This document shows positions 5,613 to 50,122 of a stretch of 64,000 nucleotides of DNA, piece after piece (position 1 is the stretch's first letter; each line of letters opens with the position of its first letter). The DNA is from Candidatus Treponema equifaecale (GTDB lineage: Bacteria; Spirochaetota; Spirochaetia; Treponematales; Treponemataceae), in contig JAGHUJ010000052.1 in the NCBI GenBank assembly GCA_018064905.1, positions 13,998 to 77,997 on the forward strand. Direction: 5' to 3'. Both the position numbers and the translations under genes were made by a program. Under the pieces are notes generated by a model. It was not told the origin of the DNA, made no database searches, and was given only the letters and a program-made list of their open reading frames with translations.

Positions 5613-6284
5613 TTACTTACTAAAATATTCTGGATAGTCGTTTATCAGCGAATCCACTACTGTTGTCAGCTGCATCAGGTGTGCTTCATCTATTTTTACT
5701 GCTTCTTCAACATTTCCTTCCCTGATTGCCTTTACAAGCGCTGAATGTTCGGCTTCAACGTTGTCGGAAATGTTTTTTGCATTGTAGCTAAGGATTCGGA
5801 TTCTGTGGTCGTTTCCCGTATGGGAATTTATTACGTCCCAAATCCACTGGTTGTCCGAGTGCCTGTAGAAAAAGTAGTGAAGGTTGTCGTCACTTTCCAG
5901 AAAGCTTTTTTTACTTCCACCCATAAGGCTTGCGTGCTGCTGCAACAGAATTGCCTGAAGCTCTGCACCAAAAATTTCAGCCTTGTTGTCCCTTTTTTGG
6001 ATTTCCATGAACTTTTTCAACACGCCAAGCTCAAGGTTAATTCTCATGAACCTTTCCTGAGCAATGATGTTCTTGTCCAAAAAAGCAACGCGGGTTCCCT
6101 TTTGCGGAAAAATATCAACGAGCTTATCAAGTGAAAGCCTTAAAAGTGCGTCACGGATTGGCGAACGGGAAACCTCCAGCTCTTCAATCAGCGTGTTCAC
6201 ATTCAATTCTTCCCCAGGCTTGTAATCAAGATTTGTGATTTTTTCCCTCAAAATTTCGTAAACTGAGCTTTCTGTTTTTTTCAT
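5613..6284 (-). CDS. GntR family (FCD) transcriptional regulator
   Basis: wHTH pattern LEVSRSPIRDALLRL...PQKGTRV; start moved to ATG 6284 (MKKTESSVYE), GGAG RBS 6 nt upstream; the ORF-track extension is translated repeat. Confidence 0.88.
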   Translation of the reverse strand: MKKTESSVYEILREKITNLDYKPGEELNVNTLIEELEVSRSPIRDALLRLSLDKLVDIFPQKGTRVAFLDKNIIAQERFMRINLELGVLKKFMEIQKRDNKAEIFGAELQAILLQQHASLMGGSKKSFLESDDNLHYFFYRHSDNQWIWDVINSHTGNDHRIRILSYNAKNISDNVEAEHSALVKAIREGNVEEAVKIDEAHLMQLTTVVDSLINDYPEYFSK

Positions 6285-6470
6285 AGATTTCTCCACTCGC
6301 TGCGCTCGGTCGAAATGACAAAAAAATATCTGCCAATGTCGAAATGACAAAAAAATATCTGCCAATGTCGAAATGACACAAAAATATCTGCCAATGTCGA
6401 AATGACAAAAAAATATCTGCCAATGTCGAAATGACGCAAAATCAGCTGTCAAAGTTTGAAATGACAAACA
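6285..6470. repeat. REP-B half element plus 29-bp tandem array (4 near-perfect and 2 degenerate units)
   Basis: Unit GTCGAAATGACAAAAAAATATCTGCCAAT starts at 6309, 6338, 6367, 6396; degenerate units at 6425, 6454. Confidence 0.95.
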
Positions 6471-6477
6471 GTTTTCA

Positions 6478-6571
6478 TGTCATCTCGATTCGAATTCCTT
6501 GTCATCTCGATTCGAATTCCTTGTCATCGCGATTCGAATTCCTCGTCATCTCGAGCGCAGTCGAGAGATCT
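6478..6571. repeat. 22-bp tandem array (x3) ending in a REP-B half element
   Basis: TGTCATCTCGATTCGAATTCCT at 6478, 6500, 6522, then CGTCATCTCGAGCGCAGTCGAGAGATCT at 6544. Confidence 0.95.
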
Positions 6572-6572
6572 T

Positions 6573-7640
6573 TTATTTTTTACTCTTGTCGATTGCTTCC
6601 CAAAGCCCCTGAATGTACATTGCACCCAAGGCACGGTCGTAAAGTCCGTAACCTGGCATACATTTTTCACCCCAGATTGTTCTTCCGTGGTCTGGACGGG
6701 CTGGTCCGTCAAATCCAATGTCGTGAAGTGCCTTTACTGCTTCATACATGTCAAAGCTTCCGTCTGAAGAAAGGTGTGCAGCTTCTTCAAAAACGCCTGG
6801 TGAGAAGTGGTGAAGGTTTCTTACATGTGCAAAATGTATTCGTCCCTTGCATGAACGGATGATGTCCGGGATGTCATTCTTTGGATTTGTTCCCAGTGAA
6901 CCCATACAGAGGGTAATTCCGTTGTATTCCTTATCAACAGCCTTGAGCATTTTAAGGATTGCTTCTTTTCCAGTAATGATTCTTGGCAGGTTGAATACAG
7001 GCCATGCAGGATCATCCGGATGAATGGCCATTTTCATTCCATATTTTTCACAAACTGGTCCAATGGCCTTCAAAAAGTAAACAAGGTTGTCAAAAAGCTT
7101 TTCGGCACTTACATCCTTGTAGGCTTCAAACAAATCCTTGACCTTTGCAAGTCGTTCAGGTTCCCAGCCTGGCATTACAAAACCGTTGGAATTGTCTGTT
7201 GTCTGGTCAAAAAATTTCTGCGGGTCGATTGTATCTACAACCTTCTGGTCATAGGCAAGAACAGTTGAGCCGTCTGGACGCATTTTTGCAAGGTCCGTAC
7301 GAGTCCAGTCAAAAACAGGCATGAAATTGTAGCAAACCATGTGGATGTCTTCTTTTCCAAGTGCTTCCAGCGATTTGATGTAATTGTCGATGTATTTGTC
7401 GCGGTCAGGTGTTCCGATTTTGATTGCGTCGTGAATGTTAACGCTTTCAATTCCGCTGATTTTAAGTCCCGCTTTTTCTACGATATTTTTGAGGCCTTTT
7501 ACGCGTTCACTGGTCCATTCTTCTCCAGCTGGAACATCGTACAAGGTGGTGATAACGCCTTTAACTCCAGGTATCTGCCGAATCTGTTCCAAAGTTACGG
7601 AATCAAATCCAGGACCATACCATCTCAAAGTCATTTCCAT
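6573..7640 (-). CDS. uxuA: Mannonate dehydratase
   Basis: MEMTLRWYG, CYNFMPVFDWTRT, AIHPDDP, RPDHGR, PGYGLYDRALG motifs. Confidence 0.97.
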   Translation of the reverse strand: MEMTLRWYGPGFDSVTLEQIRQIPGVKGVITTLYDVPAGEEWTSERVKGLKNIVEKAGLKISGIESVNIHDAIKIGTPDRDKYIDNYIKSLEALGKEDIHMVCYNFMPVFDWTRTDLAKMRPDGSTVLAYDQKVVDTIDPQKFFDQTTDNSNGFVMPGWEPERLAKVKDLFEAYKDVSAEKLFDNLVYFLKAIGPVCEKYGMKMAIHPDDPAWPVFNLPRIITGKEAILKMLKAVDKEYNGITLCMGSLGTNPKNDIPDIIRSCKGRIHFAHVRNLHHFSPGVFEEAAHLSSDGSFDMYEAVKALHDIGFDGPARPDHGRTIWGEKCMPGYGLYDRALGAMYIQGLWEAIDKSKK

Positions 7641-50006: not shown

Positions 50007-50122
50007 GTCATTTCGACTAAGCGAAGCGCATGGAGAAATCTTGCTTAATTTAAAATAGATTTCTCGACTACGCTCGAAATGACTGTAAAAAGGTAACGCT
50101 CGAAATGACTGTAAAAAGGTAA
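50007..50122. repeat. Complete REP-B element (50007-50083) with 26-bp duplication of its right end
   Basis: GTCATTTCGACTAAGCGAAGCGCATGGAGAAATCT...AGATTTCTCGACTACGCTCGAAATGAC; CGCTCGAAATGACTGTAAAAAGGTAA at 50071 and 50097. Confidence 0.9.

Follow-up and report, generated by a model that had tools for sequence, protein, structure and literature searches.

Minisatellites in the genome of Candidatus Treponema equifaecale are enriched at one end of an oriented hairpin repeat, REP-B. Their units share one anatomy, in which the 5' half of the element is joined to its own upstream flank, and the arrays lie strictly on the 5' side. The gene of a small GIY-YIG nuclease sits among the same repeats, the polarity recurs in other lineages, and copy numbers appear to differ between strains. 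We lean towards the view that these arrays are mutational scars of breakage or stalling linked to a nuclease: its binding or cutting at the 5' junction would nucleate a duplication, and slippage would then expand it into a variable-number tandem repeat (VNTR). The link to a candidate cognate nuclease, the strict 5' polarity and the completeness of the elements that anchor the arrays were absent from the original prediction for this locus.

Two facing arrays between uxuA and gntR

The window, i.e., the whole stretch of DNA analyzed, comprises 64,000 nt of Candidatus Treponema equifaecale (GCA_018064905.1, JAGHUJ010000052.1:13,998-77,997, forward strand). The genome is a MAG of 2.81 Mb in 223 contigs, and the assembly is 91% complete. 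The relevant features of the window are as follows.

5613-6284, minus strand: gntR-family regulator gene (GntR HTH + FCD), ATG at 6284-6282; Pfam PF00392 1e-16, PF07729 4e-12
6285-6319, minus strand: complete REP-B element, 35-nt long-loop variant, anchor of the 29-bp array; minus strand GTCATTTCGACCGAGCGCAGCGAGTGGAGAAATCT; member of the 223-copy regular-expression family
6309-6468, minus strand: 29-bp minisatellite, 5.5 copies; TRF period 29, 90% match, score 248
6469-6477, no strand: short stretch without repeats that joins the two arrays at their distal, most degenerate ends, from the sequence
6478-6554, plus strand: 22-bp minisatellite, 3.5 copies; TRF period 22, 94% match, score 140
6545-6571, plus strand: canonical REP-B element, complete, 27 nt, on which the 22-bp array is anchored; GTCATCTCGAGCGCAGTCGAGAGATCT; exact match to the consensus pattern
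6573-7640, minus strand: uxuA (D-mannonate dehydratase); Pfam PF03786 5e-149 over 1-352/352
50007-50083, no strand: REP-B doublet, second example in the window
50070-50122, no strand: 26-bp x2 perfect duplication at the right-hand REP-B of the doublet; TRF 100% match, score 106

The uxuA gene lies upstream of gntR on the same strand, within a minus-strand run (DctM, uxuA, gntR and a mannitol-dehydrogenase-family gene) that is a hexuronate-utilisation cluster. The gntR product aligns over its full length, residues 1-223, with Treponema homologues. In six related genomes the distance between uxuA and gntR is 0-80 bp, with no repeat. Therefore, the 288-bp block seen here is an insertion that later grew.

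Both arrays named in the original prediction are real, and a second repeat-finding run placed them in registers identical to those of TRF. The units read GTCGAAATGAC+AAAAAAATATCTGCCAAT in the 29-bp array and TGTCATCTCGA+TTCGAATTCCT in the 22-bp array. On the minus strand, the 29-bp unit consists of 18 nt of upstream flank (ATTGGCAGATATTTTTTT) followed by the first 11 nt of REP-B (GTCATTTCGAC); the 22-bp unit combines the first 10 nt of REP-B (GTCATCTCGA) with 12 nt of flank (TTCGAATTCCTT). This agrees with the predicted unit, a REP-B end plus its flank; the end amounts to the first 10-11 nt (GTCATYTCGA) and the upstream flank to 12-18 nt. Four near-identical units and two degenerate distal ones make up the 29-bp array (per-unit identities 1.00, 1.00, 0.97, 1.00 and 0.76), and the window sequence adjoining it (6285-6319) is AGATTTCTCCACTCGCTGCGCTCGGTCGAAATGAC.

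The two REP-B copies, at either end of the spacer, are in inverted orientation, head towards head, and each array is located 5' of its own element when read on the GTCAT strand. The arrays run in opposite directions, as had been predicted, with anchors on the minus and plus strands. Each does sit on a REP-B copy, but the anchors had been taken for half elements. Both are complete (35 nt and 27 nt), and are therefore whole hairpin elements rather than broken halves. Because the arrays at 6309-6554 face each other, their 5'-half motifs are complementary (TCGAAATGAC, plus strand, to GTCATCTCGA), and the whole of this spacer could form a long multi-register hairpin in ssDNA or RNA.

The elements are tightly fitted between the two genes. 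The 3' end of the element at 6545-6571 is 1 nt from the uxuA stop codon, and the 3' arm of the element at 6285-6319 (GGAGAAATCT) directly adjoins the gntR ATG. Read in the mRNA sense, the element next to gntR is GTCATTTCGAC...GTGGAGAAATCT-ATG, and thus the GGAG Shine-Dalgarno sequence of gntR comes from the 3' arm of the hairpin. Locally, a putatively selfish repeat system sits inside a tight sugar-acid operon junction, where it provides the ribosome-binding site of the regulator. The effect on gntR, namely a longer intra-operon spacer and a hairpin-donated ribosome-binding site, is probably incidental. An open frame with a TTG start (5613-6467, minus strand, 284 aa) covers gntR and continues across the 29-bp array, and gene callers may over-extend gntR into the repeat. 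Spurious frames of this kind cover many other arrays.

In the second example (50070-50122), the unit consists of the first 14 nt of REP-B and 12 nt of flank, with a junction microhomology of 1 nt. The flanks of this duplication, sought for its pre-duplication allele, were not found in other samples.

Copy number and assembly

The uxuA-gntR locus with both arrays is present in contigs of four gut-metagenome runs from two studies, at ~95% identity. Three of the four runs lack 58 nt (2x29) and 44 nt (2x22), as judged from k=31 de Bruijn contigs, in which tandem repeats may collapse. The fourth run, X5, keeps all 3.5 of the 22-bp units with five substitutions, and joins the element directly to a variant third 29-bp unit. 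The 31-mer across this junction is absent from our genome and is real evidence for a different arrangement. At a locus on contig C167, two runs lack 63 nt (3x21). Since short-k assemblies can collapse tandem repeats, the exact unit numbers are provisional; they suggest that unit numbers differ between strains, the variation that the original prediction had envisaged.

An assembly artefact is conceivable in a repeat-rich MAG of 223 contigs, many of whose ends lie in repeats. We give this explanation hardly any chance, as the independent assemblies from the four samples carry the locus with both arrays, one of them with its own substitutions, and about 30 arrays with different units have the same anatomy. 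Thus, the arrays are not an artefact of the assembly of this MAG.

The REP-B hairpin family

The sequence TCGAAATGAC occurs 200 times in the genome, where 6.5 occurrences are expected, and a regular expression retrieves 223 distinct full REP-B elements. Their form is TGTCA-YY-TCGA-S-loop-S-GAGA-RR-TCT (consensus TGTCAYYTCGA-S-CGNAGT-S-GAGARRTCT), and 154 of the 223 are 27-mers, GTCA-YY-TCGA-S-CGNAGT-S-GAGA-RR-TCT. Among these 27-mers the stem covaries at positions 5-24 (CG 75/TA 72), 6-23 (CG 89/TA 58) and 11-18 (GC 85/CG 61). At positions 9-20 and 10-19 the stem invariably has G.A and A.G, which is partly imposed by the search pattern. REP-B is therefore a hairpin whose stem has a tandem G.A mismatch of the sheared type, flanked by covarying Watson-Crick pairs. 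Variants of 35-41 nt have an additional mini-hairpin in the loop. In nearest-neighbour folding the hairpins are weak (-1.5 to -4.2 kcal/mol) and not above shuffles in stability; covariation is the better evidence for the hairpin. REP-B is lineage-specific: none of 40 relatives, including 24 species of the same genus, has the exact consensus. A search of Rfam for known RNA families gave nothing near any gathering score.

About 15 contig ends (among them C5:1-60, C14:1-60, C187, C188, C54, C113, C167 and C18) share a sequence of ~80 nt, GGGGCTGTCCCAAAAGTAATGAGTGTAGCGCTCATTGAGCTTGTCGAAATGAC TGCTACACTATATGTGGTGGTTTCGAGAGC. It is a multi-copy element with hairpins like those of a second family, REP-A, and it breaks the assembly.

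Arrays on one side of the hairpins

Tandem arrays are enriched at REP-B ends throughout the genome, as the original prediction had anticipated. Among the 30 strongest TRF arrays of period 15-50, 20 hold GTCAYNTYRA, a motif with a background of 0.7% per 30-nt window; it is found in 0 of 29 short-period arrays. TRF arrays of period 12-60 run over the GTCAT (5') boundary of 31 of the 223 REP-B elements and over the TCT (3') boundary of none, with 1.2 expected by chance. Because most 3' ends face a partner element, the test was redone on ends with a free 60-nt flank, giving 29/208 for the 5' side and 0/75 for the 3' side (Fisher p 1e-4). In REP-A (GGTSRTTGAGCYNGTCGAAAYSACC), arrays are present on the 5' side of 5 of 71 elements and on the 3' side of none. 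When both families are pooled, 36 arrays are 5' and 0 are 3'. The REP-A arrays are the following.

C87:44879, C113:2770, C26:16083 and 33653, C61:4752: REP-A 21-bp-type arrays (5' half + upstream flank)

Some REP-A arrays apparently lie within coding sequence, with a period divisible by 3.

The anatomy of the units is constant in outline and variable in detail. Arrays extend to element positions 4-24, mostly 10-20, i.e., through the 5' arm to the loop or early 3' arm, and no unit of these arrays holds a whole hairpin. The flank part measures from 6 to >20 nt and has a sequence unique to each locus; every unit takes in at least 6 nt of the 5' flank, the zone of cutting by the nuclease SsnA. In four young arrays the junction microhomology is 0-2 nt, which speaks against a founding event by slippage between direct repeats already in place. 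Judged by a crude ORF call, 12 arrays are between same-strand gene pairs, 3 between convergent genes and 0 between divergent ones; the remaining 16 are within ORF calls, mostly frames opened by the arrays, or at contig ends.

Could new, truncated copies of the element have repeatedly inserted beside an existing head, as a target-site preference would have it? Breaks beside the head could attract insertions, and some distal units start exactly at GTCAC with unrelated upstream sequence (C146). However, the locus-unique flank is repeated along with the element part, which copies arriving from elsewhere cannot give, and no arrays were seen with inter-head spacers matching the flanks of other loci. 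We therefore reject serial insertion on anatomy as very improbable. An iteron reading was rejected on anatomy as well. A CRISPR array was also dismissed, because the inter-motif segments are alike within each array rather than unique spacers.

A selected function was also considered, be it a spacer or promoter array tuning gntR, as the original prediction had it, a half-site switch involving the 3' arm, or half-sites serving as nuclease decoys or guides. The junctions of the 29-bp units do give TTGTCA-16-TATTTT facing gntR, the GGAG of gntR is within a 3' arm that is pairable with every copy of the 5' half, and copy number is apparently strain-dependent. In addition, split halves of NTS, the hairpin target of SsnA, still support cleavage in vitro (PMC11893778), and in Chlorobium a module of 5' half, spacer and full hairpin has itself been propagated. 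Against this, promoter-like hits number 2 where 3.2 are expected in shuffled sequence, the promoter-like hexamers formed at the junctions of units do not outnumber those of shuffled controls, and neither do array-made promoters or terminators. Arrays of the same kind are at about 30 unrelated loci, convergent gene ends included, and their distal units decay. Nor is the motif part of the units robustly better conserved than the flank (10.7% vs 14.4% differences, Wilcoxon p 0.08; 11 arrays vs 8), in a test that is biased in favor of the motif. A selected function is thus improbable, and the proposed tuning of gntR by a variable spacer is unsupported.

Growth at the element-proximal end was likewise discarded. 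Proximal adjacent pairs of units are more alike than distal pairs in 14 arrays vs 0, and in 8 vs 6 without the edge unit; the signal is an edge effect only and vanishes once the ragged edge unit is dropped.

A candidate cognate nuclease

Three GIY-YIG matches were found in the genome. The first is a gene in the window, bracketed by REP-A. The second is a 664-aa frame, which from its size we take to be UvrC-like. The third (C153:3719-4000) encodes a single-domain protein of 94 aa (PF01541, E 1e-17), and its gene has REP-B doublets and arrays of element end plus flank on either side. Over C153:3360-4142 (L109/L111), a 120-bp x2 duplication of a whole doublet and several 30-31-bp end-plus-flank arrays lie on both sides of the gene, and the array carries on in contig C76:1-110.

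The Ssn nuclease family was described only in 2025 (PMC11893778). SsnA is a single-domain GIY-YIG protein of 94 aa that binds the NTS hairpin, CGTCAT-TCCCGCG-MAV-GCGGGAAT-CYRG, only as ssDNA and on one strand only (PMC11893778). Cutting is strand-specific and confined to ssDNA, dsDNA and RNA not being cut, and takes place within the variable flank, a few nt to the 5' side of GTCAT (PMC11893778). The length and identity of the NTS loop are not critical, and halves on separate strands still support cutting in vitro (PMC11893778). The C153 protein is equal in length to SsnA and has Y7, Y18 and E65, compared with Y6, Y17 and E64 in SsnA. Its homologues of 92-98 aa with 60-78% identity number >4300 (Chlorobium, Syntrophales, Treponema and others). 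Among 40 relatives the nuclease is absent from 36 and REP-B from all 40, and here the two co-occur. The C153 protein is likely the cognate nuclease of REP-B.

REP-B agrees with the definition of an oriented repeat, in that a non-palindromic 5' head (HGTCWY) and 3' tail (RNCY) surround a stem-loop. The published SRM string, HGTCWYN(0-2)YYVSBRHN(0-5)WNVSBRGN(0-2)RNCYNB, matches 0 of the 223 REP-B elements because of the G.A positions in their stem, and in the genome it has 5 matches vs 7 in a reversed control. Therefore, we term REP-B a divergent Ssn-type motif rather than a proven member, although it shares the architecture of the Ssn-related motifs (SRMs) known from Neisseria and other bacteria.

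Recurrence in other lineages

In five other lineages, hairpins of different sequence near homologous nucleases have tandem 5' halves and no tandem 3' halves. In the sister species (G016), 35 elements follow the form GTCATTCCGGRCTTGAYCCGGAATCT; four tandem 5'-half pairs are present, at three loci, and 0 tandem 3' halves. Two cases of 5'-half duplication are on a Treponema MAG contig (L090), one is on a metagenome contig (L092) whose nuclease is 77% identical and whose repeats are REP-B-like, and one is on contig L093. Chlorobium phaeobacteroides (L081, L084) has units of 22-24 bp at several loci, which are partly copies of one larger module, and its polarity was read from individual loci rather than from the whole genome. 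L095 and a Firmicute locus (L097-L102) have only whole-doublet arrays, of 131-146 bp.

At the Firmicute locus (L097-L102:9690-10720, a spore-forming Firmicute in six metagenome samples), a homologous 93-aa nuclease gene has a fakA-like gene and recG as neighbors, one on each side. Whole-doublet hairpin arrays of 144-146 bp flank the nuclease gene, with 1 to 3 copies among the six samples. A perfect 26-bp x2 duplication is present within the inter-hairpin spacer of L099.

How the arrays may have arisen

We suggest that an Ssn-type nuclease would bind the REP-B hairpin on one strand of ssDNA and cut a few nt 5' of GTCAT. Binding or cutting would turn the 5' junction between element and flank into a hot spot of misaligned repair or restart synthesis. 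An error there would duplicate the segment that straddles the cut, i.e., 6-20 nt of flank, the 5' arm and part of the loop. From two copies on, slipped-strand mispairing would gain and lose units, and the VNTR would come to vary between strains. Speculatively, the lack of whole hairpins in the units may mean either that the process stops in the loop or that direct repeats of complete, cleavable hairpins are unstable. The arrays would thus be by-products, or scars, of a selfish nuclease-hairpin system. We infer that the nuclease would cut at REP-B in this genome and that the duplications would stem from the cutting, not simply from binding or structure. The original prediction had proposed that an element end and its flank were duplicated repeatedly, possibly through nick-primed strand displacement or slippage, and in direction this was right: the arrays are confined to the side on which Ssn-type nucleases nick ssDNA (PMC11893778), and unit numbers apparently differ.

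The simplest form of cutting can be set aside. Since the flank part varies from 6 to >20 nt, the unit boundaries cannot be accounted for by a single fixed cut followed by plain fill-in or ligation of a flap. To our knowledge, end-joining is not known in Treponema.

The duplications could also be independent of any nuclease, if the hairpin stalls replication and slipped or template-switched synthesis duplicates the neighboring DNA; the GIY-YIG protein would then be irrelevant. Hairpins are established replication obstacles and slippage hot spots, unit lengths and boundaries vary as stochastic slippage would give, and one young array has an imperfect 7-nt boundary homology (GAAGCCG/GAAGTCG). However, the hairpin is nearly symmetrical and occurs in both orientations to genes, and presumably to replication forks, so that structure alone should give arrays on either side, whereas the pooled count of the two families is entirely 5' and the same polarity is seen in the five other lineages. 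The predicted hairpins are weak, and what counts is the orientation that the protein recognizes in the Ssn system. We consider that structure alone is an unlikely cause. The side of the array is set by the orientation of the element, which in the Ssn system is read by the protein; for this reason, binding or cutting by a nuclease at the 5' junction is favored as the nucleating event.

Implications

If the nuclease-linked origin is true, these one-sided scars at the known cutting side, which accompany unrelated hairpin sequences in several phyla, would be the first genomic evidence of Ssn enzymes acting on their own chromosome, and the origin of a class of intergenic minisatellites would be explained. 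We tentatively extend this, with somewhat less confidence, to the idea that polar minisatellites of 5' half plus flank are a general in vivo footprint of Ssn-type nucleases on the host chromosome. In that case, the cutting side of an enzyme could be read from genome sequence alone, including for uncharacterised nuclease-hairpin pairs, and small GIY-YIG nucleases would be an unrecognised source of bacterial VNTRs and of BIME/NIME-like clusters. In a bolder version, the one 3' arm, with the gntR ribosome-binding site in it, may pair in turn with different spare 5' half-sites, forming a copy-number-dependent switch or a set of programmable cleavage sites.

Comparison with known systems

Hairpin repeats associated with nucleases and VNTRs derived from repeats are both of known kinds. 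Ordinary bacterial VNTRs, which arise by slipped-strand mispairing, resemble the arrays here in their head-to-tail units of 21-37 bp, their degenerate edge units and the apparent differences in copy number between strains. Unlike ordinary VNTRs, the arrays here are non-random in location: of the strongest non-coding arrays of this genome, two in three are nucleated at a single end of a single repeat family.

NTS has dRS3 as its palindromic core, and Neisseria intergenic mosaic elements (NIMEs) are RS units flanked by dRS3. NIMEs are intergenic arrays in which a hairpin repeat alternates with blocks of 50-150 bp. Compared by description only, NIME units differ from ours in carrying complete dRS3 copies and long blocks.

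REP/BIME and REPIN-RAYT systems (Nunvar 2010, PMC2817692; PMC3116915) share with REP-B high-copy extragenic palindromes, often in inverted doublets, and strain-variable higher-order arrays. In P. fluorescens, REPINs are repeated in tandem 'including the flanking sequences' (Bertels & Rainey 2011, PMC3116915). The REP and REPIN arrays repeat whole REPs or REPINs, whereas the unit here is without a whole hairpin and strictly one-sided; whole-doublet arrays are present elsewhere in our genome (C153, 120 bp x2), and the array units here end at positions 4-24. RAYT systems have a Y1 (HUH) transposase as partner and a GTAG-type REP head, in contrast to the GIY-YIG nuclease here. No RAYT gene flanked by REPs was found in the genome, the only PF01797 match being a 37-residue fragment at a contig end (C205:8-118), and a RAYT- or IS200-type gene could lie in a gap of the 91% complete assembly.

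The closest likeness is to the Ssn/NTS/SRM system (Chenal et al. 2025, Nat Commun 16:2388, PMC11893778). Strictly polar minisatellites of 5' half plus flank across lineages were not found in the searchable literature and are outside the published description of Ssn; that paper mentions no tandem arrays, duplications or spirochaetes (PMC11893778). REP-B differs from Ssn/SRM repeats in the conserved tandem G.A mismatch of its stem, and in its host, a gut Treponema. What they share is an oriented hairpin of ~27 nt whose head is (C/T)GTCAY and whose tail is of the ATCT type, REP-B and NTS having in common the oriented GTCAY head and the RRTCT tail. Further likenesses are hundreds of mostly intergenic copies, tolerance of variable loop length, and a 94-aa single-domain GIY-YIG gene bracketed by the repeat. 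Lastly, the published cutting side in Ssn systems, 5' of the head, is the side on which the arrays lie here.
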